Of a DNA stretch of 64,000 bases, positions 16,830 to 37,195 are shown in pieces. The position numbers were made by a program, and so were the translations under genes. Source of the DNA: Leptolyngbyaceae cyanobacterium (GTDB lineage: Bacteria > Cyanobacteriota > Cyanobacteriia > Phormidesmidales > Phormidesmidaceae); NCBI GenBank assembly GCA_965263355.1, contig CBDHHL010000032.1:64001-128000 (forward strand). Reading direction: 5' to 3'. Under the pieces are notes generated by a model, which searched no databases, was not told where the DNA came from, and worked only from the letters and a program-made list of their open reading frames with translations. Numbering within the stretch: the first letter of the stretch is position 1; every line of letters begins with the position of its first letter.

Positions 16830-17020
16830 GCACTGGTTCCGTCAGGTGGGAAGCCTATATCCTTTGCGTGAGAATAGTTAAACGGCATATCGAATCGATA
16901 ACAACTGTGACCATGAGAGTCCCTTGTCCAAAATCCCTATGCGGACAGCAGGCACCTGTTTTGTGGTGAAATGAACCCGCTAACATTGCCAACCATGGTT
17001 TGTGGTCAATCAATGTCGGA

Positions 17021-17084
17021 TTTGTTGGGTTGATATAGGGTAGTCAAAAGCAGAGTTTTTGGCGGGGTTGCAACCCAATCTACG
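17021..17084. repeat. GTAG-type REP-like element (long loop), inverted partner of 17410..17475
   Basis: The reverse complement reads cgtagattgggttg...caacccaacaaa; 17410 reads cgtaggttgggttg...aacccaacaaa. Confidence 0.65.
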
Positions 17085-17102
17085 CGGGATTTTCTATGGT
17101 TT

Positions 17103-17140
17103 CCCCTGTAGGGTCATTGCATGCAATGACCCTACAGGGG
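17103..17140. repeat. Perfect 38-bp palindrome, GTAG-type REP-like
   Basis: cccctgtagggtcattgca|tgcaatgaccctacagggg. Confidence 0.85.
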
Positions 17141-17163
17141 GGATGCCAAAGGTCCAAGTTAGG

Positions 17164-17292
17164 TTATTCAACGCGGATGCGTTTGGTCAAAATTGCCATT
17201 AGTTCATTGGGGCGTCCGGTGGGTAGGGGGTTGCTCCAATCGTTGGGTTCGGCGGAGTTGAGTTTGTGCTTGGAATCTCCGGGGTCAGTCAT
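17164..17292 (-). CDS. Possible 42-aa small protein or gene remnant
   Basis: My translation: MTDPGDSKHKLNSAEPNDWSNPLPTGRPNELMAILTKRIRVE*. It is GC-richer than the flanks and below the ORF-track cutoff. Confidence 0.3.
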   Translation of the reverse strand: MTDPGDSKHKLNSAEPNDWSNPLPTGRPNELMAILTKRIRVE

Positions 17293-17338
17293 CGGTACGG
17301 TGTTGGTAGCACTTGCCGATGGCGCAAAAGCAAACTGA

Positions 17339-17616
17339 GTTAATTAGGGTGTCGCAATTGGTGATAATGATTGGGTTATAGTTGAAACGGTGAACCATAG
17401 CCTATACCTCGTAGGTTGGGTTGATACCCCTATGATCTCTCCATCAACCGTCTTGCACCCATAAAACCCAACAAATTCAACATTGATGATATTCCATATC
17501 CATAATGATTGGGTTACGGGTGTGGAATGTAAAAATGTTGGCAATGTTGGGTTAATTAGGGTGTCGCAATTGGTGATGATGATTGGGTTACGGGTGTGGA
17601 ATATAAAAATGTTGGC
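17339..17616. repeat. Overlapping ~40-bp direct repeats
   Basis: gttaattagggtgtcgcaattggtgat(a/g)atgattgggtta at 17339 and 17551; atgattgggttacgggtgtggaat(g/a)taaaaatgttggc at 17505 and 17579. Confidence 0.75.
17410..17475. repeat. GTAG-type REP-like element (long loop)
   Basis: cgtaggttgggttg...aacccaacaaa. Confidence 0.6.
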
Positions 17617-17629
17617 TTGATGCGAGAGA

Positions 17630-20600
17630 TTAGTCTTGTTGCAAGGGTGGGACTCCGCAAAGGGCGCGATCTTCATCGTTGTATTTCGGATCAGGATTGT
17701 TGGTCAGAAAAGGTCTAAGATGCTCACAGGCACTGGCCAAAAGCTCATCTAGCCTATCCCAGGCATACAGAGGCCAAAGTGTCATCACATTGTCCTCTGT
17801 TAGAGCGATATATCGCCAATCACCACGAATATCAAAATTTGTACCCTCATATTGTGCAATTTGATTGCCGTTGAGGTCCCACAGACGCGCCGTGCCATCC
17901 TCCCCGCTCGTGGCGATCTGCTGACCATCCGGACTGAACGTCACCTGCAAAACACTCCCCTGATGGCCATCAAACTGCTGGATTTGATTGCCGTTGAGGT
18001 CCCACAGACGCGCCGTGCCATCCTCCCCGCTCGTGGCGATCTGCTGACCATCCGGACTGAACGTCACCTGCAAAACACTCCCCTGATGGCCATCAAACTG
18101 CTGGATTTGATTGCCGTTGAGGTCCCACAGACGCGCCGTGCCATCCGCCCCGCTCGTGGCGATTTGCTGACCATCCGGACTGAACGTCACCTGCCAAACA
18201 CTCCCCTGATGGCCCTCCAAACTGCTGGAGTTTGATTGCCGTTGAGGTCCCACAGACGCGCCGTGCCATCCTCGTGGCGATCTGCTGACCATCCGGACTG
18301 AACGTCACCTGCCAAACACTCCCCTGATGGCCATCAAACTGCTGGATTTGATTGCCGTTGAGGTCCCACAGACGCGCCGTGCCATCCGCCCCGCTCGTGG
18401 CGATCTGCTGACCATCCGGACTGAACGTCACCTGCCAAACACTCCCCTGATGGCCATCAAACTGCTGGATTTGATTGCCGTTGAGGTCCCACAGACGCGC
18501 CGTGCCATCCGCCCCGCTCGTGGCGATCTGCTGACCATCCGGACTGAACGTCACCTGCAAAACACTCCCCTGATGGCCCGTCAAAACAAGGGGCGTGTTT
18601 TCAGTATTAACAGAAATTGAATATTCTCCAATTGCTCCTTCAGCATATGTTGTTGCTATGACCTGATAAGAACCATCATTAGGTAACTGAAAAACAATTG
18701 CTGAATTGAGTTCTGAACCACCATCATCATCACGTGCAAGAATATTACCTTTGCTATCGACTAAGAAAAGAAAAGGATCAAACGAATCACTAGTGAGAGA
18801 GATGGAAACTATCTGATGTGCTTTTCCTGAGAATTTATGGCTTGCGTAATGTCTGCCTTCCCGTTCAGAGAAGAAATCAGACTCCGTAATGAGTTCACCG
18901 TCATCACTAAATATGGATTTTGATTTATATGTCTCTAATCTACTCAGATTCCACAGCCTTACTGCACCGCCGCCGCTTGTTAGAGCAATTTGCTCGGTTA
19001 TGGGATTAAACAATATAGATAGAACACTGTACATACTGTTGATTTGATTGCCGTTGAGGTCCCACAGACGCGCCGTGCCATCCTCCCCGCGCGTGGCGAT
19101 CTGCTGACCATCCGGACTGAACGTCACCTGCAAAACACTCCCCTGATGGCCATCAAACTGCTGGATTTGATTGCCGTTGAGGTCCCACAGACGCGCCGTG
19201 CCATCCGCCCCGCTCGTGGCGATCTGCTGACCATCCGGACTGAACGTCACCTGCAAAACACTCCCCTGATGGCCATCAAACTGCTGGATTTGATTGCCGT
19301 TGAGGTCCCACAGACGCGCCGTGCCATCCTCCCCGCTCGTGGCGATCTGCTGACCATCCGGACTGAACGTCACCTGCAAACACTCCCCTGATGGCCATCA
19401 AACTGCTGGATTTGATTGCCGTTGAGGTCCCACAGACGCGCCGTGCCATCCTCCCCGCTCGTGGCGATCTGCTGACCATCCGGACTGAACGTCACCTGCA
19501 AACACGCCCCTGATGGCCATCAAACTGCTGGATTTGATTGCCGTTGAGGTCCCACAGACGCGCCGTGCCATCCTCCCCGCTCGTGGCGATCTGCTGACCA
19601 TCCGGACTGAACGTCACCTGCAAAACACGCCCCTGATGGCCATCAAACTGCTGGATTTGATTGCCGTTGAGGTCCCACAGACGCGCCGTGCCATCCTCCC
19701 CGCTCGTGGCGATCTGCTGACCATCCGGACTGAACGTCACCTGCAAAACACTCCCCTGATGGCCATCAAACTGCTGGATTTGATTGCCGTTGAGGTCCCA
19801 CAGACGCGCCGTGCCATCCTCCCCGCTCGTGGCGATCTGCTGACCATCCGGACTGAACGTCACCTGCAAAACACGCCCCTGATGGCCATCAAACTGCTGG
19901 ATTTGATTGCCGTTGAGGTCCCACAGACGCGCCGTGCCATCCTCCCCGCTCGTGGCGATCTGCTGACCATCCGGACTGAACGTCACCTGCATCCGGAAAC
20001 ATGCCCCTGATGGCCCGTCAATTGAGTTTCACGAACATTATTTAAACCTGTTTGTAATGCTAATAGGGGACTCGCTGCCAGGTAATTTATTCCATTCGCC
20101 TTAATTATGTCATTGGCTTCTTTGGATAGCTTAAATGCCACAAATAAACTTTCTGACTGCTGGGCCTCAAACTTTCGAGATGCATTTACACCAGCCCTCT
20201 CCAAATTAGTCACCCGTCTTACCAATGTGGCCTCAAGTCTTGCGCTCTCCCGTTCTTCAAGGGCCGCAACCTCTGCCAATCTAGCAACCTCTAAATCTCT
20301 CTCAGCTTGCTGACTCGCAATTTCAGCTTCTGTTACTTTTGCCTGAGCACTTTCAATTGCTGCCTGGGCCTCCTGTTGTTCCGCTTTGGTCCGCCGATCA
20401 ATCTCTTTCAGACGAGTATTAGCCTCTTCAACTGATTTCTCAGCCTTTTTTACCTTTTTATCAGCTGCCTGCGCTCTCCTGCTAGCAATGTTTTGCCGAA
20501 ACTCTGCCACTTCAACATCGAAACCGGCTTTCCGTTGTTTCAAATTAGCCCAAATTTCTTGCCTATTTGCTTTCCATGTAGTGAGCCCAGCGTCCAAAGT

Positions 20601-23558
20601 GGACCTATCGGCGTTTTTAGTCGCTGCAATAGCTACCCCAACCGTGACAAAAGCAACTGCAGCGGCAGCGGCAATAGTTCCAGTTAATCCCCGCCGTGCC
20701 TGCCGATTCCTCGCCCGCAAATTCTCTCTTTCATCCTGTATCAGCCCCAACTCCTGACGAGCTTTCGCATTCGCCGCTTCCAGATCCGCCTTCTCACTTT
20801 CCAACAGCAACCGCTTCCGCTTCTCCTCCTCCAGCTCCGCCACCAGTTTCTCCAACTGCGGAGCCTGCGACGCCCGGATCACCCCCGCCAAATAATCATG
20901 CACCAACTGATACCGATCATCCGGCGTATCCGGCAGATACACCACAATGCCCGACCCAGTCAACACCCGTAACACCAGGTCCAGCCCCTGAACCTCTACC
21001 TCAGCCTCCAGACGTACCCCCAACGCCTCCAACTCCCGCACCAACTCCGGCCCCGTCTTTAACGGACGAGTCCCCCGCTCATCCGTCAACAAAAACAACA
21101 CCAGCGACGCCAGCCGTTGATTTTCCTCCCCACAATCCTCCACCACATCATCCAGGTAGCGCTGCACCAACGTCTCCTTTGGCTGTGCCCCCAACTGCCG
21201 ATACTCCCCCAGAGTCTGGATGCCATTTGTCTGCAGCTGCGCCCCCACCACCTGCATCTCGATGGGTCGCACCTCCCGCAACGGCCCCGCCAGATCCCTC
21301 ACCAGCGCATCCACCAGCTCCGGCTCCAAATACATCCGCGACCCCGACGCCAGATTTTCAATAATCGACTTCGTATCCTCCGGGCTAAAATTCCCAATCT
21401 CATAGAGAATCTGTTTCCCCAGAATATCCTCCAGCTGTGCCCGTGCCATCGACCCCGGCTCCAGCTGATTTTGCTTTACCAGCTGTCGCGCCTCTAGCAA
21501 ATAATGCAGATAATCCTCCCGAATCGAAAACACAATCTTTAACGCACCAGGCAGATCCAAACAACGCGCAACAAACTCAAAAAACACCCGCCGCCTCAAC
21601 GGATCAGGATTCGCAAAGAAAAACTCCTCAAACTGATCAAATAACAAAACCGGACGTAACGTTCTATCCTCACAAATTCGCAAAACATCAAGAATCTTGC
21701 TCTCCACCCGCATCTCAAAGTCCCCCAAACTTGGGGGATTTAGGGGGCCACCAACACTACTCACCTCCTCACCATCAGCCCCCCCATCCAAGTCTCCCCC
21801 CAGCAGCTTCAGACCCTCCAGCGCCTTCACCAACTCCTGCTGCCAATCCGTATACTTCCGCACCAATACCGGCACATTTTTCCGATTCTCCAGGGTCCGT
21901 CCCCTCAGCGCCGGCAACAGCCCCCCATTGATCAGCGAACTCTTCCCCACCCCCGATGTTCCATGGACCACCACCAGCTTATGGGTCTTCCCCGCAATCC
22001 GGTTTAAAAGTTCTGTCAGATCCCGCTTTCGCCCCGATGCCTCAATCTCTGGCGCAATCTCCTCCAACGTTTCCCGCTCAGACCGCACCGTCATTCGTTG
22101 TTCTATCCGTTGAGAGCGTAATCGTCCTGCCCCAATGAAGGCCCGTAGGCCGTACTGCTTCTCAATCGCTAACCGCTCTCGCTTAATCTTAAACGCCCTT
22201 AAATAATCTCCCTGCTCCCGCAAACATTGTTGTAACCCTAACAATATGCCACTATATAACGTTGGGTGCTCCATCACCCCCAGGGCCTGGGCTGCTTGTA
22301 AATGGGCGATGGCCGTTGCCCGCTCCCCCAGTCGATGCTTAGCTTCTGCCAACATTTTTAGATACAGCAGCCGCCACCAGCTATCTTGCTTTTTGAGCGT
22401 ATCTAAGGCTGTTTGGGCTAGCTCAGCGCCCCGTTGCCACTGCTGTCGATGCAAGGCCACATCGGCTAAAAAGCCATAGTCCTGGGCTTGTTTACTCGTG
22501 CCTGAATACCGCTGATGCAGCGCTAACGCTTGCTGCGCGGTGGCTTCTAGCTCGTCCCATCGCTCTAACCGATGCAGTACTCGCTCCAGCTGATTAATGC
22601 ATTTTGCCATCAGGTCGGGGCGCTCAGCCTGTTCAAACACAGCTAAAGAGTCCTGCAACGGTGGTACCACCCCTTCCCAGTCTGCACTGCGATACTTTGT
22701 ACTATCCACCACATAGTACCGAGCCCGCCCTAAATAAAACAGCGATAGCCCATATCGCAGCTGTTTATCGGCCTGGGTACGCCAGTAGTTAGCACTCTGC
22801 TGAAATAACTCAATCGCCACCTGGTTGGGCACATCCAGACCCCGCGCAAAGGCCACACTCGCCTGCAAATCTGGCTCTAGCGCGATGCCTTGTGCCTGTA
22901 AAGCTGTCAGGGCTAATGACAACTCATGGGGTTGCAAATAGCCAAAGGCATTGAGCTGTCTTAACTGTTTATTAAATGAAGCGGGGATATCGGGGGCTAA
23001 CAGCGTTTCAAACAAATGATCGCTGGCCAGCTGTAGCCCATGGGTCAGGGCCTCGATGGACAGGGTAAATTCAATGGTTTCACCCCCGGCAATACTTTCA
23101 AAATCGTTGGCATGCTTTGACAGCAGCCGATATCCCTGATCCGTAAACCACAATACCAACGGAAATGGAAACTCCCGCCGAAATTCTTCCCGTCGTTTAT
23201 TTAGCTCTACTAAAAAGACTTCTAAGGAGCCCAGTCGCTCCATGCCTAGCACCAGCACTGCCCCCGGCGGGCTATCCCCTCGCTGCATCATCTGCAGCTG
23301 CGCATACAGGTTGTAGTCATCTGTGCCTAATTGCAACACTTGCACCGGCCCCTGCAGGTCTTCCCCAGCCAGCCGTTGCCCCAGCTGCTCTACCATCTGG
23401 TCCCGCAGACGACCATAGTTGCACCGTGCTAACAGCAACGTAATCGTATCTGCCCCCTGGCCAAAGGCAATGGCACTGGTTAATTCCTCCAGCGCCGCCT
23501 GATTCTGCGCTGAATTCCCAGCAAATTCAAAATTGTCGGTAGGGGGCACAGTATTCAT
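17630..23558 (-). CDS. NLR-like STAND NTPase with TPR, TM and WD40 propellers plus an inserted PPC domain; frameshifted in this sequence (pseudogene or assembly errors)
   Basis: ORF 19983..23558 has an N-terminal domain lacking a Walker A, TPR-like helices, Walker A HGTSGVGKSS, Walker B LLFDQFEE, YQLVHDYL, a coiled coil and a TM. WD40 units continue through ORFs 19492..19992, 18093..19379 and 17630..18292 and end in ELLASACEHLRPFL...ALCG. Confidence 0.85.
17859..18577 (-). repeat. Six near-identical ~123-bp WD40-coding tandem repeats
   Basis: Plus-strand unit starts at 17859, 17982, 18105, 18229, 18346, 18469; each encodes GHQGSV(L/W)QVTFSPDGQQIATSG(E/A)DGTARLWDLNGNQIQQFD. Confidence 0.95.
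19042..20015 (-). repeat. Eight near-identical ~123-bp WD40-coding tandem repeats
   Basis: Plus-strand unit starts at 19042, 19165, 19288, 19410, 19532, 19655, 19778, 19901. Confidence 0.95.
21716..21749. repeat. Small G/C-run palindromic repeat embedded in frame in the STAND gene
   Basis: tcaaagtcccccaaacttgggggatttagggggcc with arms tcccccaa/ttggggga; encodes GPLNPPSLGDFE. Confidence 0.6.
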
Positions 23559-23659
23559 CAGATCATGCCTCCTGGGTGGGGCTCCTGGGTGGGTCTAACG
23601 TGCCTATAAAATAGCGAATCTTGGTTAATTGCAACAGGGGGGATGGATTATATATACCG

Positions 23660-23731
23660 GTGGGGGCGGTGGGTTGTGCTTTGTTGGGAGATACCTTCGT
23701 ATAAATGGTTTGTAAGCACAACCTACCCTAC
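23660..23731. repeat. GTAG-type REP-like element between the ATPase and STAND genes
   Basis: gggttgtgctt ... aagcacaacctaccctac; the minus strand begins GTAGGGTAGG. Confidence 0.55.
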
Positions 23732-23738
23732 GTCGCAA

Positions 23739-25151
23739 TTATCCCATTATCCCGCTATCGTCCTTTAATTCCTCGGCTTCTAGCAAAATTGGGTTTACGT
23801 CAAACCAGGATTCTCCCTGGTTGCGATATTCAAATACCAGACGACTGTGGATTAATCGCTGATAGTCGTCGTCGCCACCGACTTTTTTTTGCTGCTGTCT
23901 TACTTGCCGTAATAACGCCCATTCATCTGTCGATAGCTGCAGGGTCATCTCATTGCGTCGGGCGCGAATCACTTCTTCTAATTTCGCTTGCTTGAGGGGA
24001 AAATTACGTCCCTTGCGCACCCAGCCGTTGAGCAACCGCAACAGGTCTCGCACATGACCACCACTGGCCATACAAAGACGATCCAAAGATTCTGGCTGCT
24101 CGAACAATGTCATTAGTTGCTCTAACCGTTCGGTTTCTGACTGGGCTGGCATGGCTCGCGCTAGCACTAGCTGCCTGAGCAGCCGCATGCCTTCTTCACA
24201 CAGCTGGCCATTGCGCAACTTTACTGGCACCATGGGCAGCACCTTCGGGTCATCTGTGTACCGTGCCGTCAGCAGCCCATATTCACTGGAAAACTTCAGC
24301 GCCAGGGGAATGGTATACACCTTATGGCAGTGCAGCTTTTGCAAACATTCGTGCTGATCAATAAATAGGTATTCCTGCTGGGACCGGCCAAAGGCTTTGG
24401 GGCGATTGTCAATCCGGTCTAGATTGTCCACAATCACCACCAGCCCTTTTTTGCCCTGTTGCTTAAGCTGTTCGATGGCAGGCTTGAGCAACTCTTCGTT
24501 AATGGCCTCCACCAGCTGATTTTTTTGGGGACCTAAAAACTGATTTAATCGGTCCCGTAGGGTGGCGTCATTCTTCGCTCGGGCGGTGATTTTACCAATC
24601 CCTGCTGCCAGGGAAAATTCGCCGTTGGTATTGGCACTGGCGCTTAGGTCTGATATGCCCGGTGTCTTGATTGGCAACGGCACCGATGCTTCAGCCTCTA
24701 GCTCAATCTCGGTCATCAAGACCTTGGCGGCCTTTTGTAATAACCCCCGCAGGCCCTTCGCATCACCAATGTCGATGCCTTCTAGACTTTGGCTAATGCG
24801 TCGGGCAATGGCCAGCAACACATCGCCAATGTCCACATCGGCCATCTCCAGGTCTTCTGTGGATTCAAAATAAACGACGTGGAACCCCTCTACTTCTAGT
24901 TCTGCCCGCAGTTTTAGCAATTCCGTTGATTTACCACAGCCGATATGGCCGGTAAACAGAGTACAGGTAGGATTCTCGGGTTCGTAAAAGGTGATCAGGT
25001 CTTTGATTTCGGTAATAATCTGCTCCCCACGCACCTCGGAAAAGTCGATATACAGCTGCCGGTCGTCCTCGTTTTGCGGATCAAGGGTGCGGGCAGGGTT
25101 GGTGGCTTGAAAAAACTGACGAACATCTAGCACGGGCTTACCAGGGGGCAT
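23739..25151 (-). CDS. P-loop ATP-binding protein (AAA+/STAND/KAP-like), partner of the downstream NLR-like gene
   Basis: Walker A GHIGCGKST, Walker B VIVDNLDR, SGGHVRDLLRL, C-terminal WFDVNP. Co-oriented and 180 bp upstream of the STAND gene. Confidence 0.88.
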   Translation of the reverse strand: MPPGKPVLDVRQFFQATNPARTLDPQNEDDRQLYIDFSEVRGEQIITEIKDLITFYEPENPTCTLFTGHIGCGKSTELLKLRAELEVEGFHVVYFESTEDLEMADVDIGDVLLAIARRISQSLEGIDIGDAKGLRGLLQKAAKVLMTEIELEAEASVPLPIKTPGISDLSASANTNGEFSLAAGIGKITARAKNDATLRDRLNQFLGPQKNQLVEAINEELLKPAIEQLKQQGKKGLVVIVDNLDRIDNRPKAFGRSQQEYLFIDQHECLQKLHCHKVYTIPLALKFSSEYGLLTARYTDDPKVLPMVPVKLRNGQLCEEGMRLLRQLVLARAMPAQSETERLEQLMTLFEQPESLDRLCMASGGHVRDLLRLLNGWVRKGRNFPLKQAKLEEVIRARRNEMTLQLSTDEWALLRQVRQQQKKVGGDDDYQRLIHSRLVFEYRNQGESWFDVNPILLEAEELKDDSGIMG

Positions 25152-25290
25152 GGCGACGGTAATCGAGGTCTATGTCCCTATAGCTTCAGGTATCGCACAT
25201 TTTTCTCCCAGGGGATGCCCTGACATCGTAATAGTGCTTAACAAAGAAACCTTGATGACTCAATGCGGGATGATCTCCCAGGGGGTTAGA

Positions 25291-25374: not shown

Positions 25375-26115
25375 TCAGGTAAAATCTACTCGTATAGTCA
25401 GGTTGGCCTTGACCCGACGACCGCCATCAACAATAAATAGAATTTCGGCAAATCCTCCAGGGCCGGGTTCTTTAACTGTATATAGACGAGTTACGGACCC
25501 AAATCGGGTTTCATAGGTAGTGACGCTACTCGGCCCCAAATATTGTCCCGTATTGGGATCCACATCCCCTTCCCAGGTGCCCCAGTCCTCAAATCGATTA
25601 CGGGTAGGGACCAGGGCACCATCTAGCTCCAGGGCATCTAAATGTTCATCACCGCCTAATACTGTCATGCCCCGATCTACGCCCGCTGTCGTTGAGCCGG
25701 TAAATGTAATGGGGCTAACAAAGTTGTTTGCAATTTGAATTGTTCCAAACCCTGGATTAGGTCCCAGGCGCTCATTACGTTGTCTACCCCAGAGAGGATT
25801 GTCCACATTGCCTAAACGTTTGGCAAACGGGGTGGCGTTGTCTATATAATTGCGGTTTGTAAACTCCTGTTGAACCGATTGCACGACGTCCGCAATGACC
25901 GGATCCGTTTCAGGCGGTAGGTTTTCCGATTCTCCTCGGGCGATATTAACCTGACGAAAGGTTCTAAAGACAGCATCGGCCCGACCATCTTGACTCAGAC
26001 GATAGTCCAGAGAGTAGGCATTAGCGGGTTTAGGAAAGAAGAAACTAGAGGTTCCAACAAAGGAAAGTCCTCCCAGGGTACTTGTCTGAATAAACCGACG
26101 TCGGTTTAAGCTCAT
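25375..26115 (-). CDS. Twin-arginine (Tat) signal-containing hypothetical protein
   Basis: N-terminus MSLNRRRFIQTSTLGGLSFVG...PKPANA; no catalytic motif recognised. Confidence 0.8.
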   Translation of the reverse strand: MSLNRRRFIQTSTLGGLSFVGTSSFFFPKPANAYSLDYRLSQDGRADAVFRTFRQVNIARGESENLPPETDPVIADVVQSVQQEFTNRNYIDNATPFAKRLGNVDNPLWGRQRNERLGPNPGFGTIQIANNFVSPITFTGSTTAGVDRGMTVLGGDEHLDALELDGALVPTRNRFEDWGTWEGDVDPNTGQYLGPSSVTTYETRFGSVTRLYTVKEPGPGGFAEILFIVDGGRRVKANLTIRVDFT

Positions 26116-26230
26116 AGAATTGGATATTGATACTCAGGTCTACGAATGAGAAAAAAGAGAGCACACACCTGACTTGAAGAGTCTATCTCAAGTTTGAATT
26201 ACCCAATCCCGATTCGAAATGAATAATTCT

Positions 26231-26258
26231 GTAGGGGCTGTAGCTTATGTCAGCCCTA
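26231..26258. repeat. Degenerate GTAG-type REP-like hairpin
   Basis: gtaggggctg...cagcccta. Confidence 0.45.
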
Positions 26259-26291
26259 AGGATATCAGGGGATATCAGTTAGGATTTCGGA

Positions 26292-27086
26292 TTAGAGAAG
26301 ATCTAAAATCCTCTCGATTGTATTCTCGAATTTTTCAATGTCGTCTAATACAGTGCCTGCATCCTCAACTACATCACCAGAATCGTTAGGACGTGTATGC
26401 CCCTCAGACCGTTCAGAATCTGTAGCCGTTGGATTATTTGTAGGCTCCTCACTTGTGCTTACGGTATCTCCCCTTAAGACTGCACCACTAGTACTGGGAC
26501 TGCTGTGCGTACTACTACCTCCGCCAGTATGGAGTTTGGCCTCTAAAAAATGAAGATTACAGTTGCTACTCTTCCCGCCGGGACCTGAGCGATGACAAAT
26601 TAGTTCGACTGAAAAATCTTCGCCATTGCCCAGTATCAAGGTTGTGTTGATTAAGCTCCCTGGAACAATGTTGTCATAGGAATGAATTATATTACCGCTT
26701 TGGTAAACATTAACGGTGGCTAAGGAATCTCTAGCTGCATCCTCATCAGGTACTCCCATCTGTAAAACTAACAATGGAAAGGTACTAGAGTCTGCCAAAC
26801 AAGTAAGCGCAGCTTCATAGGTAGCCCGAATCGGCATAAAAAACTGTGATTCATAGGGGCGTCTATTTACTGCAACTAGCGATGACCCGGTACTTAAACG
26901 ATCGTATGTTGAGCGCGATGTGTTGTACGTACATTGGGCACCATCTAGCAACGGCATTTCTTGTTCAGGTCCCACACGACCTCTGGCGTTGGGGTCCGAC
27001 TGACCGAAAGCGGGGGTAAGGGAGCAAAGCCACACGAGTGGCAAAATCAACGCGACAGCGTTTGCGTTTGAGTACAGATAAGACAT
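26292..27086 (-). CDS. Secreted hypothetical protein (possible beta-sandwich domain and disordered S/T-rich tail)
   Basis: Signal peptide ending PAFG-Q; four Cys in the mature part; low-complexity C-terminus. The start is uncertain (27086 or 27113). Confidence 0.7.
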   Translation of the reverse strand: MSYLYSNANAVALILPLVWLCSLTPAFGQSDPNARGRVGPEQEMPLLDGAQCTYNTSRSTYDRLSTGSSLVAVNRRPYESQFFMPIRATYEAALTCLADSSTFPLLVLQMGVPDEDAARDSLATVNVYQSGNIIHSYDNIVPGSLINTTLILGNGEDFSVELICHRSGPGGKSSNCNLHFLEAKLHTGGGSSTHSSPSTSGAVLRGDTVSTSEEPTNNPTATDSERSEGHTRPNDSGDVVEDAGTVLDDIEKFENTIERILDLL

Positions 27087-27255
27087 GGCTATTAGTTGCT
27101 CAGGAATGCCCACGGTTAACGTCTTGATTATCTAAGGTCTTATCACCAAAAGGCATTGATTGATGACTAACAAGAGGACCGATGTGTAAAAGTTCACCCT
27201 GCCCTGTTAACCGTTAAATATTGGTTAAAGATGCAGCGAAGACTATTAAATCAAG

Positions 27256-32900: not shown

Positions 32901-33360
32901 TTAGACCCTCACCAAACTCAAAGGCCTCAGCTGTACTGGCAAAAAACGAACCGGTAATATCGAGCTCTGCTGCCGGTCCAAAGACAATGCCATTGGGGTT
33001 AAGTAAAAATAAACTGGCATTACCATCAACGCCGAGGGTCCCCAATAGATTGGAGGGACTATTACCCGTGACGCGACTGAGAATATGGTCAATACCAACG
33101 GGGTTGGCAAAATAAACGCGCTGTAACTCAGCAACATTAAAGTCTGTAAAACTGTGGAAGAGGTTCGCGCCACGAATAGCTCCCCCTTCAATTAAATTAG
33201 CAGGCAAACTCTGGACCGTCGCATCCGTCACTGTCGAGGCTTCATTACCTAGGGTATTGTCCGGTGTGATTTGGGCCTGCACCGCCGCAATGCTGCCGAT
33301 GCTAAACAGGACAGGCAACAACGTTAGGGACACTTGGGTAGGGAGTCTAAACCTATTCAT
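29953..33360 (-). CDS. Filamentous haemagglutinin-family TpsA exoprotein
   Basis: AQITPDNTLG, NLFHSF, NPNGIVFG TPS domain; Gly-rich beta-helix repeats (G.GG.I.I.A); C-terminal FTVVGRGGLP...GW motif. Confidence 0.93.
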   Translation of the reverse strand: MNRFRLPTQVSLTLLPVLFSIGSIAAVQAQITPDNTLGNEASTVTDATVQSLPANLIEGGAIRGANLFHSFTDFNVAELQRVYFANPVGIDHILSRVTGNSPSNLLGTLGVDGNASLFLLNPNGIVFGPAAELDITGSFFASTAEAFEFGEGLSYSATDPVAPPLLAITLTPGLQYGEPQQGLIQSEAQLQTGGLLSLQAETLNLQGSLLTPGHLKLWATDTVEIRDSVAQPFIAAAGEGIDIQANETLDISVLEHPDSGLWSGGDLSLRSGQPVIGDAYFWSGGQFQIEQLDGSPGNLISVRDPVIEAQGDVSFITYIGGSLRILAGGAVTIGELTIFGTDPAFPDEQVSLSRALPDGVSFVEANGSVRPVVDIRAGTTAAQTPLNCLGCGFFINEPIGIQESIATSADINIGKIFISQPDGVVLLTNQFQPDESLASGNIRTNIIATNAQLPFLPFIGNGGDVFIDSRGNIEIFSTGLTPGRIQTVSLTGKTGRIALIAEGEVALLKDSALLSETQGTGQGGRVDILANNLRMTEVAQIVTSTASQEKGGDIYIEVTDSLEIIGDVPASEIPGSANTGILSTIRAGANADGGEITIKAGSLTITQGAIVGTFIRAAEDGLPAGQGNSGDINVIVEGDILLTSLDAPANTGFDTGLAEGTAGSSGDINIEARNLFVQNAKFPAIRTDVLGIGDSGNIEIQLDESFILSGNSTIATDLREGGVGNAGDIIVDAQNIVVDNGAAISSTIAPSRRGFPGGQGTGGDIFLKGRDSITISQGSLQSVAGEDTVGPAGNIIFETPNLVVDSSSAVATITFNESPGGDIQVISDRVTLQQGSSLLSRAEGPGAAGEIDILADDRLTISVGEISASADAAGGGNVEIDAGITFFNQGSLLSTSVFDSTGGGGNITINADALVLIEDSDILANAELGPGGIITINSPAFLATLFESGQTTPVGRNPGSFAQFRGNNRVDISADSAQGSSGTVSFSSLVTDEGLNELPTNLIDPTSLIDQRCDLLASQQRQDDSETSQFTVVGRGGLPVTPRQSLDATHLLDDLGPQEIQPVAENVINDLTDEILTPTQPDVSTETIVEPRGWRRDADGRLYLYASSRLETADSSLVQQCGVPSQANLSSTVSR

Positions 33361-36300
33361 AGGGCACTCGTTTGTCTAAAATTCTCGGAAACAGAGGCAC
33401 AATGGGCACTCAGATGAATGGGAGACTCTGTTGAGCGAGTCGCTGCATAGAGCACTAACTGGCCGTCAGCATTGCGTACCCAACCCTGCGGTTCAGAAAT
33501 CTTTTCTACTACTACATCTAATGAAGAGTTATTGGTTATTTGAGTATCGCTAGTGCCTTGATGGGCGTCACTGTCTTCTACAACAGGTCCCAAGTCATCG
33601 AGTAGTGCTTCTTCATTGAGGGGAGTATTGGGAGTAGTCGGCAGTCCACCACGACCCACCACTGTAAACTGGCTTCCCCCAGTGTCTGTGTTATTGGCTG
33701 CCAGTAAATCACACCGTTGATCAATCAAACTTGTCGGATCAACTAAATTTATAGGTAAATCATTTAACCCTTCCTGCACATCCACATTGGTCAGACGATT
33801 AAACTCGGTAATGCCTGCATCGCCTTCAACAGAACTGGCGGTAATATCACTAAAGGGTGTTAGTTCATCTTGAAATTCTAAGCCAATAATATCTCGTGCT
33901 GAGATTGTTACACGACCACCAGAACCACTAAAAGCATTGGCCGTAATGTCACTATTCTCGTTAAGAACGCTCACTACAAAAGGAGAATTTATCATGACAC
34001 TACCACCGTCACCACTGGCATTTAGAAAACCCGCTGTCGCAGAAATACCACTAATCTGTCTTAACAAAATATATTCGCTTACGTCGAATGTAATATTGCC
34101 GCCATCGCTCAAGTTACTAATTGTCTCGATCAAGCTCCTATTATCTGCAAAAACAGAATCTGCAATGATTTCAATATCGCCAGCTTCAGCAAATGCGCTA
34201 GTTGGAATCGAAGGAACACCAATAGTGCCTGAGGAAATATAAGCAGAATCTGTTAATCGTAAGTTATCCGTACGAATTAAAAGGTCCCCACTAAGACCAC
34301 TACCGCTTATTACATTGGTAAAAATTCGAGAATTGCTAACTTCAATGAAATCATCTGCCTGGATACTTATATCACCACTATTTCCCGAGCTTAAGGAACT
34401 TGTTGTTATAGTACTGTCATTTGAAATTAGTAGCTGGTTTGCTTGAATACCCAACTCACTACCTTGTCCCCCTGCAATTCCTGAGGCTATAATCATGCCA
34501 CTATCTATATTGACCAGACCTGTTGCTGTAAGCTCTAAAACATTGACAGGCCCTAATAAGCTTGATAGTAAGATCGAACTACCACTGCGAAGCGTTAAGT
34601 TATCTGTTACTATCGCTAACGTTCCACTGGTATCTCGGCCATTAGATACTGTTAATATGCCTGTGTCTTCAACCAAGATAGAATCACTTTGAATATTTAG
34701 AAAACCGGCGTTGCCTAGCAAATTACCATCTGCAGAAACTTCAGCAAAATCTCGCACAATTAAATTATCGGTCTCGATTTCTACAACACCGGCATTTCCG
34801 AAACTCTCTACAGTACGAGCAAAAATACCTGAGGGTTCACCATTGGGAGTGGTTCCTGAAACTTCAACGCTTTCAGCACCTACAATTTGAACCCGCCCTC
34901 CATTACCCCCTCCTGTCGTACTGGCATCAATTTCACCACCACCCTCAACAAGAATCTGATTCGCATCAATTTCGATAGTTCCTGCATCACCTGTGGCACC
35001 TGCCCTAGAGTCAGCCACAATACCAGACTTGAAACCGAGGAAGGTCCCTAACACCTCAACACTTTCAGCATCTGTAATCTGAACCCGCCCTCCATTACCC
35101 TGGCCCAGAAGAGTACCGGCATCGATGACACCAGCTTCGCGAACGATGATTTGATTCGCATCAATCAATATCTTTCCGCCTGCAGCTAATGGATTGATAG
35201 AAGCTGTCAAAGCAGAAATGTCACTATTGACTACTTCCAATAGCTCTGTTCCTTGGATAAGGATTTCTCCTGCACCCCCTAGCCCAAATGTTGATGCTCT
35301 AATGGCTGCCTCACCTTGAACTGTGATAACTGGAGATGTCACGATAATGTTCCCAGCCGAACCGGTACTTCCAGGGTCAGCATTAGCGTTCAAACCAGAC
35401 GATACGTTCCCCGACACACCCGTACCAAACCCATCTAATGTAACTGCTTCTGTTGCACTCACATTCAGTGTGCCGCCCCCTCCACTTAATGTGCCAACCC
35501 TAAACTGTGCACCGTCAGAGAGACGAATATTGGGGGCTGTTACTGTCAAATCACCGCTTAACCCCACGAAAGGAGCTGTGTCAATTTGTGCAGCATTGGT
35601 CAGTGCAACTTCATTATCAGCTTTCAGGCTGGCATCTCCACCATAGGTCCAAACAAACGCTAGGGGAGACGTAATCAAAATGTCATTACCTGCCATCAAA
35701 TCAATATCACCACTGCCGCGAAATTCAATCCGACGGTTAATAACAATATCATTTCCCGCCTCAACCTCTAGAGAAACATTAGGTCGAGTTGGGTCTATAA
35801 CAACATCTTCATCAAAACTGATATCGTTAGTTGCTTCTAAGACAATATTCGTATTTGCAGCTACATTTTCCAGGGCAGAAGCAGCTAATTTAGTATCTCC
35901 ATCTCCTCCTAAATCAGGAAAACTTGCGTCAGAAACTAAGGTCAAATCAGTAGTTTCAGCCTCTGCATCACTGACAATACGAATGTTGGTGGGATCTAAC
36001 AAAAGAGTACCAAAATCACCATTGGGTGCCTGGGTATTGGCTGTTCCCTGAAACTCTAAAAACAACTTTCCTGAGACTTCTATCAGGCCCCCATCGCCTG
36101 CTGTCTGACCCCCTTGGGCCGAAAATATTCCATAGGCCTGGGTTGTATCATCAGACCATACCACAATTTCACCACCATCACTAGCCTGCAGTCCATCTGC
36201 AGCAATGACCACACCTGGCCCAACAACAGTATGCTGTGCCGTGGGCAATGACTCACCCCCCCCAAACGCACCGCCTACATAAACAGCTCCACCCCCATTG

Positions 36301-37195
36301 CCAGAAGACACATCAACCAACGCAGACTCAAATAGCCCCACACGATTACCTAAAACCTGCACCGTGCCGCCAGGGGCAATCAATTCACCAGTAACCAGTA
36401 CATCACTGCCATGCAAACTCAGGGTTTCTGTTTCACCTACCTGTAGCACTCCAGCGAATGTCTCCTTGCGGGCTGCCATATTGCAGTCCAGGGGTTAACG
36501 TTACCGCTAGTAACGGAGGAACATCAGGATCTATTACGCCATACTGCAACCCATTGACACTGCGAATGTCTCCTTGCGGGCTGCCATATTGCAGTCCAGG
36601 GGTTAACGTTACCGCTAGTAACGGAGGAACATCGATCTATTACGCCATACTGCAACCCATTACCAAACTCAAACGCCTCGGCAGTAAAAAAAGAACCTTT
36701 AATATCCAACTGTGCATTGGGGCCAAAGGCAATGCCGTTAGGGTTTAGAAAAAACACATTGGCATCACCATCAACGCCGAGGGTGCCCAATAGATTGGAG
36801 GGATTATTACCCGTGACACGACTCAGAATATTGTCGATACCAACGGGATTGGCGAAGTAAACACGCTGCAGATCAGCAACATTAAACTCTGTAAAGCTAT
36901 GAAATATATTTGGTCCCCGAATAGCTCCACCTTCAATTAGATCAGTAGGTAGTCCCTGAACAGTGGCATCCTCAACAACTATTGAGGCTTCATGGCCCAA
37001 GGTACTGTCTGGAAGAATTTGGGCCTGGGCCGTAGTTCCTCTACTCAACGATAACAGGATACTTACACAAAGCAACGCGACACAACTACTTTGTCTCACC
37101 AAACAATCTGCCACCATAATTACCTTTACAGGTGAGAGATTCAGACTATTCATTAATACTTGAAAGGATACTACCATGGCATTTTCAGGAGGCAC
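33357..37195 (-). CDS. Second TpsA exoprotein, broken by a ~100-bp duplication and frameshifts (pseudogene or assembly artefact)
   Basis: TPS domain in ORF 36524..37195 (NIFHSF, NPNGIAFG); body in ORF 33357..36479 (GGLIEVSGK, GTLLLDP, GRGGLP). The stop overlaps the next ATG (ATGA). Confidence 0.85.
36454..36661. repeat. Tandem direct duplication (102-bp and 100-bp copies, 6-bp spacer)
   Basis: gcgaatgtctcc...gcaacccatt at 36454..36555 and 36562..36661; the second copy lacks 'ag'. Confidence 0.9.

Follow-up and report, generated by a model that had tools for sequence, protein, structure and literature searches.

How does a membrane receptor that carries no obvious effector pass its signal on? 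The question is raised by a two-gene locus in a stretch of 64,000 nucleotides from a Leptolyngbyaceae cyanobacterium (contig CBDHHL010000032.1, positions 64,001 to 128,000; hereafter the window, whose first letter is position 1). Both genes lie on the minus strand, at the positions that a preliminary description of the DNA had named, as the list of open reading frames (ORFs) of the window confirms: gene A encodes an AAA+ ATPase and gene B a large NLR-like receptor. By its structural model, the N-terminal domain of B (N-domain) is a dead AAA+ domain, and it is predicted to dock on the ATP site of A. I hold, with modest confidence, that B is an outward-facing receptor for non-self and that A is its separately encoded output. 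The elements on which this argument turns are the following.

23739 to 25151, minus strand: gene A, 470 residues, an intact AAA+ ATPase of the ORC/Cdc6 clade (KAP/archaeal-ATPase-like) with a lid and a C-terminal winged-helix-like region; candidate effector
17630 to 23558, minus strand: gene B in full, ~1,976 codons on the assumption that its four indel sites are errors; present in the window as four ORFs
23064 to 23516, minus strand: N-domain of B, residues ~15 to 165, a five-stranded AAA+/ORC-type core with the P-loop deleted, predicted to dock on the ATP site of A

The ATPase that had been placed upstream, with intact Walker A and B motifs, corresponds to the ORF at 23739 to 25151, in which GHIGCGKST and D-x-LD are present; 180 bp separate it from B. 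The latter encodes, in this order, the Walker-less AAA+ domain, a TPR region, an nSTAND1 NTPase, a coiled coil, one transmembrane (TM) helix, a second coiled coil and about 16 WD40 blades with a PPC (pre-peptidase C-terminal) domain. The order of domains given in the preliminary description was thus correct, but the gene of ~5.9 kb is not a single ORF in the window, and the PPC domain had been overlooked. Because the domains match known families and the pair is conserved in many genomes, chance is excluded on sequence grounds and the two-gene module is real.

To decide what the Walker-less domain is, its fold was examined. The AlphaFold2 (AF2) model, built with 67 sequences, has a predicted local distance difference test score (pLDDT) of 90 and shows a five-stranded core in which strand 1 passes directly to the helix without a P-loop, the Walker B aspartate is replaced by glycine and the lid is absent. 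All 50 VIA-align rows listed for this model are AAA+/STAND-class NTPases, and Foldseek concurs in finding a P-loop AAA+ fold. The top VIA-align matches are TnsC (Z 11.8, root-mean-square deviation (rmsd) 5.6, 175 aligned) and ORC3 (Z 11.0); Cdc6 (Z 10.7, rmsd 3.5, 144 aligned) and the inactive AAA+ domain of Sir3 (Z 9.9) are matched as well. With its five-stranded AAA+ core, eroded Walker A and B motifs and missing helical lid, the N-domain fits the inactive STAND/ORC-type class. N120, R123 and D152 are its conserved residues; of 245 sequences, 241 have R123 and 239 have D152. The earlier view that this domain is a dead P-loop NTPase therefore finds support in both the model and the fold matches.

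A second part of that view, paralogy between the N-domain and A, gained no support. Profile-profile comparison (hhalign) of the two gave probabilities of 0.3–0.7%, leaving the fold class as what they share, and no significant match came from comparing the N-domain with nSTAND1. Since these profile comparisons are not significant, "dead AAA+" is supported and "paralogue of A" so far is not. Neither Pfam nor NCBIfam has a model for the domain: no meaningful Pfam match was obtained with the 19 members scanned, and the named Pfam models iSTAND, BrxB and nSTAND2 were matched by none of 19 aligned N-domains at an E-value of 1. A sequence search of the PDB returned no real relative of A or of the N-domain. 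The N-domain profile retrieved 2135 representatives at E 0.001, and Atlas matches to it, which serve as leads only, are confined to unnamed cyanobacterial clusters.

Does this dead domain meet the live ATPase? Prediction of the complex between A and residues 1–480 of B scored 0.71 (0.72, 0.71 and 0.71 in three runs), versus 0.00 for the best of three controls; the mark used for this score is reached by 116 of 157 solved pairs and by 2 of 215 mismatched ones, and is rough since the alignments were user-supplied. Contact agreement between runs was at least 92% and the pLDDT of the partners at least 84. On the B side, all listed contacts fall within residues 25–163, including N120, R123, D152 and 155–161, and none is listed for the TPR region; on the A side they involve the N-terminal helix, the P-loop, Walker B and the sensor-2 helix, which together make up the ATP face. 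Conservation is modestly higher at the interface than elsewhere (0.56 versus 0.47, p 0.045), and identities of A and of the N-domain co-vary over 56 pairs (Spearman 0.58, 0 of 1000 permutations; kinship not controlled). The suggestion that the N-domain pairs with the upstream ATPase is thereby upheld as a predicted binding.

The predicted docking on the ATP site of A resembles that of BrxB on BrxC in BREX, where an active ATPase of the ORC/Cdc6 clade likewise has a lidless inactive STAND domain over its ATP pocket. BrxB, an inactive AAA+ protein, is described as giving an arginine to the BrxC ATP pocket, stopping further stacking and raising ATPase activity up to about six-fold (PMC13326643; this and the other papers are cited for those of their parts that were available). 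The A/B pair differs in that there is no methyltransferase, PglZ, BrxA or BrxL, that the dead domain is part of a membrane receptor and has no BrxB Pfam match. No PglX/BrxX methyltransferase with PglZ was found in the flanks within the window or among the 147 flanking ORFs of relatives scanned, out of 227 picked.

The part of B that follows the N-domain, up to the second coiled coil, is laid out as follows.

22119 to 22961, minus strand: TPR-like helical region, conserved; PF17874 E 8e-8 and PF13424 E 1e-4, neither reaching the curated cut-off
20889 to 22034, minus strand: nSTAND1 NTPase (PF20703), residues 509–890; E 6e-26, 92.3 bits against a cut-off of 27.1
~20694 to 20861, minus strand: coiled coil 1, before the TM helix
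20619 to 20678, minus strand: single TM helix, residues 961–980; orientation N-in, C-out, as deduced from its context
~20154 to 20606, minus strand: coiled coil 2, after the TM helix, as read from the sequence

Membership of B in nSTAND1 follows from a score above the curated cut-off together with intact Walker motifs (GTSGVGKSS at residue 533, LLFDQFEE at 638); among 68 relatives, the Walker A pattern is found in 67 and that of Walker B in 64. Within the nSTAND1 coding sequence, a short, imperfect palindrome (21713 to 21750) keeps the frame; it matches many unrelated contigs, similar in-frame inserts occur in relatives, and it is presumably a small dispersed repeat.

The TM helix is a hydrophobic stretch of 19 residues (~961–980; mean Kyte-Doolittle (KD) hydropathy 2.26) with basic residues ahead of it. 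Topology was scored in 60 of the 68 nSTAND1-bearing partners, 8 having been dropped for want of an end motif or tail. A helix of KD at least 1.6 follows nSTAND1 in 47 of the 60, with more basic charge ahead of it in 41 of these 47; it is absent in 3 of 3 histidine-kinase fusions and present in 2 of 2 CHASE2 fusions. This helix pattern and the PPC insert support a cytoplasmic NTPase and an extracytoplasmic propeller, so that the propeller most likely sits across the membrane from the NTPase, as had been proposed.

The region beyond the stalk comprises these elements.

19041 to 19991, minus strand: WD40 array 1, 8 near-identical units of 123 bp; indels at ~19992, 19500 and 19378
~18951 to 19040, minus strand: divergent WD40 blade, between array 1 and the PPC domain
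18660 to 18845, minus strand: PPC domain (PF04151 E 8e-7, above the cut-off), inserted in the propeller region
17859 to 18578, minus strand: WD40 array 2, 6 near-identical units; the unit at ~18191 to 18308 has several indels
17655 to 17732, minus strand: C-terminal cysteine pair motif, common to many relatives; possible disulfide outside the cytoplasm

The cysteine pair was considered as a proof of topology and dropped, its occurrence in 27 of 44 complete TM-bearing relatives versus 3 of 10 TM-less ones being too weak.

If the propeller faces outward, what does its sequence say of the ligand? The WD40 region consists of 14 near-identical units of 41 residues (123 bp; 95–99% matches), one divergent blade and one partial one. 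Only three substitutions recur among the 14 units of the window; all three are amino-acid changes and they lie at R1-2, R1 and D-1, the top-face binding positions of WD40 propellers (PMC3419727). The same pattern was sought in relatives, where 9 arrays with at least 4 near-identical units were found and 8 kept after removal of a redundant one, the window's own array being excluded. Of the changes at the three top-face codons in these 8 arrays, 68 alter the amino acid and 1 is silent, against 52 and 26 at the other 27 codons (Fisher p 1.6e-7); nine of these 27 are constrained by the search pattern, and excluding them leaves ~23 versus 3 changes per codon. The spacing of the variable codons (5, 7, 23, 25) equals that of codons 7, 9, 25 and 27, which are those reported as selected in the fungal protein HET-E (PMC1805685). 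B thus has what characterises HET-E-like HIC-WD40 proteins, namely near-identical repeats with variation focused on top-face codons. The fungal NLRs HET-E and HET-D (PMC1805685) resemble B in combining a STAND domain with near-identical WD40 repeats that vary at the same top-face codons, but theirs is a NACHT domain, cytoplasmic and with a fused HET effector, whereas here the domain is nSTAND1 and the propeller lies beyond a TM helix. The idea of a non-self sensor gains real support from this pattern of variation, although immunity itself is not demonstrated.

Variation is not limited to single codons, as a discontinuity just after nSTAND1 indicates.

20812 to 20818, no strand: module junction, where DNA similarity to relatives ends and contigs of two sequencing runs diverge

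The loci of two relatives, L005 and L007, cease to resemble the DNA of the window at 20818 and 20812, respectively. Contigs of run X1 cover A and the first half of B at a depth of 22–24, equal to that of a 14.6-kb flank contig; at 20812–20857 the coverage splits between the window allele (6.8) and another allele (15.1) that is unlike the window for at least 255 letters. By hand translation, the first 30 letters of this other allele encode an in-frame, related coiled coil. In run X2 the window allele is uncovered at 20077–20430. From the junction and the coverage split we infer that the whole TM-stalk-propeller module appears to be swapped between strains just after nSTAND1, X1 and X2 coming from one study and contig depths being crude.

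Gene A contains the following motifs and insert.

24924 to 24950, minus strand: Walker A, residues 68–76
24570 to 24722, minus strand: insert after strand 2, alternating polar and hydrophobic, mostly disordered in the monomer model
~24417 to 24440, minus strand: Walker B, conserved core D-x-LD
~24261 to 24263, minus strand: putative arginine finger R297, role assigned from its position in the AAA+ fold
~24048 to 24062, minus strand: sensor 2, GGHVR, role likewise assigned from fold position

The G, K, S and T of Walker A (GHIGCGKST) and both aspartates of Walker B (D-x-LD core) are invariant in 56 of 56 aligned homologues, as are the putative arginine finger and the sensor-2 arginine. The model of A (pLDDT 87) matches Cdc6/Orc1 (Z 15.3, rmsd 4.8, 257 aligned), the archaeal ATPase 2qen (15.2) and TnsC (15.1), and further BrxC (Z 11.7), RdrA (Z 11.3) and NLRs in the range Z 11–13. 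Its score of 22.5 bits to PF07693 (KAP) exceeds the cut-off of 20, but AAA_22 passes too, and no TM helix was called in A. Atlas clusters containing an A homologue bear KAP or AAA_22 labels, some being mostly Bacteroidota or Actinomycetota, and again serve as leads only.

The insert of A has a pLDDT below 50 at model residues 142–172, residues 175–187 being modelled as a helix. Its length in the 56 homologues goes by steps: 26–29 residues (n=15), 42–45 (n=23), 49–51 (n=8) and 60–64 (n=10). The family-average hydrophobic moment at positions 142–144 is ~0.55 at 170 degrees versus 0.15 at 100 degrees, and most of the top 25 hydrophobic-moment windows lie in the insert or at its edges. Judged on such properties, the insert is consistent with one to three amphipathic beta-hairpins; these might build a membrane barrel or act as a channel insert that grips substrate.

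Is the pair kept together elsewhere? A was found at E 1e-30 in 80 of 301 sampled genomes of the phylum, often in several copies, and all 80 genomes are of at least 3.8 Mb. Linkage was examined in 82 loci taken from the best matches, hence not a random sample, and in which L013 and L084 are probably one place. An N-domain gene lies within 2.5 kb downstream of A for 67 of 86 A copies, in line with the proposed linkage of the two genes. The C-termini of the partners are WD40 repeats, PAS/histidine kinase (3) or CHASE2 (2), or the partner consists of N-domain and TPR only. Minimal pairs of the latter kind, which include no other enzyme and no TM helix, are found at L100, L104 and on an Acidobacterium plasmid (L133, N-domain E 4e-6). 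Ten plasmid records match, eight of them at 48% or more; on Acaryochloris pREB2 the pair, with HicAB, RelE and NACHT genes, is enclosed by two integrases. With the queries used, phage records and viral contigs contained no relative of A. In one case, a Nostoc plasmid (L136), a divergent A-family domain makes up the C-terminal portion of a vWA protein whose gene follows one for MoxR; this slot is the effector position in the scheme of Kaur et al. for operons of the VMAP-MoxR-vWA type (PMC8195603).

The two genes also occur apart. Five genomes searched in full have 4–8 N-domain genes each, including bare N-domains of 154–165 residues and full receptors without A. Stand-alone N-domains of 154–187 residues were noted at L115 (3817–4281), L117 (3838–4335) and L118 (3876–4373), and also at L010, L094 and L112, some with no A nearby; they are possible decoys or inhibitors of A. 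A clade of partnerless A copies (L011–L015, L017, L021, L080, L082, L084–L086, L089 and L090) lies mostly upstream of a shared neighbour gene, which I take to be the housekeeping gene for shikimate dehydrogenase (aroE); these copies may serve unlinked receptors in trans. Of the representatives P0121 and P0225, one has a tandem duplication of the N-domain and the other starts with a fragment of the A-insert region fused to the receptor, possibly by deletion or misassembly. In seven close relatives a gene for a coiled-coil and PD-(D/E)XK-like protein of 196–257 residues stands between A and B (L001:10502–11134, L002:10507–11184, L003:2957–3613, L004, L005, L006 and L009), with weak matches to DUF3782/REase that are below the cut-off; being restricted to these seven, it was rejected as an obligatory effector. 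A HEC-01-like pair occupies the same place in L078. At L001 (1–15816), L002, L004 and L009, two paralogous pairs stand back to back and divergent, the second receptor having no clear TM helix (KD 1.2).

Taken together in one model, these observations would make B a type II membrane NLR-like receptor. Its nSTAND1 domain and all that precedes it would be cytoplasmic, and a coiled-coil stalk would hold the WD40 double propeller and the PPC domain in the periplasm, an arrangement strongly supported by sequence. The top face of the propeller bears a signature of diversifying selection and appears to be exchanged between strains; what it tracks would then be foreign and changeable, for example a tail protein of a phage, an effector from a competitor or a surface protein of non-kin cells. 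By analogy with other STAND proteins, the ligand would cluster B and nSTAND1 would oligomerise. The dead N-domain is predicted to bind A back-to-face over the ATP pocket, like BrxB on BrxC: at rest it would cap A, while clustered N-domains would seed a ring or filament of A at the membrane, with R123 as a candidate trans-acting arginine. In the last and weakest step, assembled A might harm or arrest the cell, first of all by membrane insertion of its amphipathic hairpins, or else by draining ATP or by DNA binding through its winged helix. The preliminary description had seen no obvious nuclease or TIR effector; no match to such a family was obtained, but the absence of any effector needs revision, the best candidate being A itself. 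It is considered the output because it is the only enzyme in the minimal pairs, because the N-domain fills the slot held by TIR or caspase in other nSTAND1-TM-propeller proteins and because an A-family domain once occupies the vWA effector slot.

Several points weigh against this model. The complex score may mirror a generic solved AAA+ interface, the controls having been unrelated proteins and not AAA+ domains; R123 is off the canonical finger position; and AF2 models half of the insert of A as helix. No partner gene accompanies 19 of the 86 A copies (2 of them cut by a contig end, 12 beside the same gene), and some partner genes and bare N-domains in turn have no A. The pair is not among the PADLOC models and was not recognised by that tool. 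Most of the 147 flanking ORFs gave no match at E 1e-20 and no clear defence-island signal emerged, no background rate having been measured; the matches are mostly generic kinases, ABC ATPases, TnpB and Uma2/PD-(D/E)XK proteins, with few defence-like genes (the HEC-01 pair inside L078, AbiEii, methyltransferases). Hotspot diversity has been reported for highly repetitive WD40s in general (Hu et al., PMC5587647), so that the diversity of top-face codons is not specific to the A/B system. The histidine-kinase (3) and CHASE2 (2) variants suggest signalling, the kinases possibly reversing its direction, and with the partnerless A clade they fit ordinary signalling. I therefore considered, in place of defence, a general switch of filamentous cyanobacteria for envelope sensing or development, in which A and the N-domain would be an ATP-dependent on/off switch and the variable C-terminus of B an ordinary signalling input or output. 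This alternative is a serious one, though rather unlikely: the kinase and CHASE2 C-termini, A copies at a conserved housekeeping locus with unlinked partners, several paralogues per genome and flanks mostly devoid of defence matches agree with it, while it sits badly with the strong excess of amino-acid changes on the binding face, module swapping within the population, neighbours that differ among relatives with 88–93% identical ATPases, copies on plasmids and in a toxin-antitoxin island, and the effector-slot fusion of L136.

The receptor could also be as proposed and A be a brake or reset factor that holds B off or dismantles its oligomers, the real output being the TM/nSTAND1 oligomer of B or a recruited effector, encoded by the host or in trans. 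Partner genes without an adjacent A (L113, L114, L119) would be in keeping with such a role, and the PD-(D/E)XK-like gene of the seven close relatives could be the effector; since minimal pairs have neither a TM helix nor another enzyme, and the nuclease-like gene is absent from the window and from most pairs and its Pfam matches are below the cut-off, I regard this as improbable. Still less credible is that the copy of B in the window is a decayed pseudogene whose frameshifts are real and whose propeller is not made. B is indeed split into four ORFs (19983–23558, 19492–19992, 18093–19379 and 17630–18292) by four indel sites, truncated or split partners exist among relatives (L005, L054, L066, L094, L096) and another gene of the window, of the filamentous-haemagglutinin type, also appears split. 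However, all four sites lie within the near-identical 123-bp array (a gain of 5 at ~19992, two losses of 1 in a T run and a net loss of 5 in unit 11), and the frame is unbroken in A and in the first 3.5 kb of B. Contigs from four sequencing runs were compared over 19900–25200, which covers the site at ~19992 only. The 5-nucleotide insertion is absent from one contig of run X3 (depth 3.5, with 25 letters on the short side, below the bridging bar of the tool), and contigs of run X1 stop at 19990 and restart at 19997, on either side of it. These contigs favour an assembly error, and the indel at 19992 is probably one; the runs may be the window's own source.

Returning to A as the output, its most specific form would be that A is a ring-forming AAA+ ATPase doubling as a beta-barrel pore former, seeded by the dead AAA+ domain of a hypervariable, swappable receptor. 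I consider this unlikely. Pore width would then be tuned by the one to three hairpins per subunit, and, as in the main model, the periplasm-facing receptor would detect non-self outside the cell. If true, this would be an outside-in analogue of the inflammasome and gasdermin, or a kin-recognition system, of filamentous cyanobacteria.

How much of this is already known? Proteins combining nSTAND1, a TM helix and a beta-propeller have been described by Kaur et al. (2021, PMC8195603), whose supplement has 461 occurrences of the nSTAND1+TM string; B shares with them an nSTAND1 domain above the cut-off, but has no TIR, caspase or EAD, the slot being held by a dead AAA+ domain and TPR that would recruit a second ATPase. 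Four rows of the same supplement, from two Nostoc genomes, read "AAA_22 -> TPR+nSTAND1+BetaPropeller" and stand there as a neighbour of bDLD3; they are equated with the A/B family by architecture label only, since the rows do not mark the N-domain, and the operon is left without comment in the parts available. Rows of the form "4stranded+TPRs+nSTAND1+TM" resemble B but are wHTH fusions and were rejected. The two-gene nSTAND2 systems and the iSTAND/iSTAND2 MoxR-vWA systems (PMC8195603, PMC7159879) similarly pair active and inactive STAND-type NTPases in operons of multicellular bacteria; the present locus differs in having no GT4 or HEPN effector, no MoxR-vWA core and no match to the Pfam models of those systems, and in adding a third, active NTPase and a TM sensor. 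The inactive STAND domain fused to GT4 or HEPN that defines nSTAND2 is not seen in the architectures of B or its relatives. Tmn (YobI family) and KAP NTPases such as PifA (bioRxiv 10.64898/2026.03.01.708804) are ring-forming P-loop NTPases with an insert in the NTPase domain and a membrane-acting role in defence; Tmn, however, inserts two TM helices and has its own sensor, whereas the insert of A is hairpin-like and its receptor is a separate protein. Avs and other bacterial NLRs have a fused enzymatic or pore effector, and B gave no nuclease, TIR, SIR2 or protease match.

Active/inactive STAND pairs and nSTAND1-TM-propeller proteins are therefore already in print (PMC8195603, PMC7159879, PMC12839542), and A/B is a widespread module, a variant of NLR-like conflict systems. 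No description of the pair was found in the literature searched, whose coverage leaves out most subscription journals. Lee et al. (2026, PMC13581612) survey 589 STAND clades, and neither the accessions of five relatives nor the word nSTAND1 was found in the supplement parts examined. PMC10907252 and the Kibby, Tmn and ParA preprints provide the context of periplasm-facing or membrane NTPases, the pair not being described in the parts examined. The parts are known, then, and it is the wiring of a receptor through a dead ATPase domain to a separate ATPase that appears uncharacterised. The bacterial NLR-like proteins tested sense phage proteins inside the cell and carry the effector on the same chain, according to the available text of these papers. 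If the model is right, sensing in the A/B family would take place beyond the inner membrane, and the signal would pass by a handshake of dead and live ATPases so far seen structurally in BREX, with a diversifying pattern at the level of the repeats like that of fungal allorecognition receptors. Named residues, a swappable junction and a candidate effector insert would offer a testable handle on non-self recognition and on cell killing or silencing in multicellular cyanobacteria.

The neighbours of A and B in the window are a secreted protein, CHAT/haemagglutinin genes, and transport and metabolic genes. Upstream of A on the same strand (25375 to 27113) are two secreted-looking proteins with no Pfam family, the first with a Tat signal. 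Downstream of B, the non-coding segment from 17009 to 17616 has duplicated segments of 41–43 nucleotides and a perfect palindrome with 19-bp arms (17103 to 17140). The seemingly split gene of the filamentous-haemagglutinin type (33357 to 37195) consists of an ORF of 223 residues containing the N-terminal domain, 45 bp, and an ORF of 1040 residues; beside it lie another gene of this type, a CHAT-TPR gene and the gene for an outer-membrane transporter. Genes for exopolysaccharide biosynthesis (glycosyltransferases, flippase, Wzc, export protein) form a large cluster of ordinary content from 39140 to 60343.

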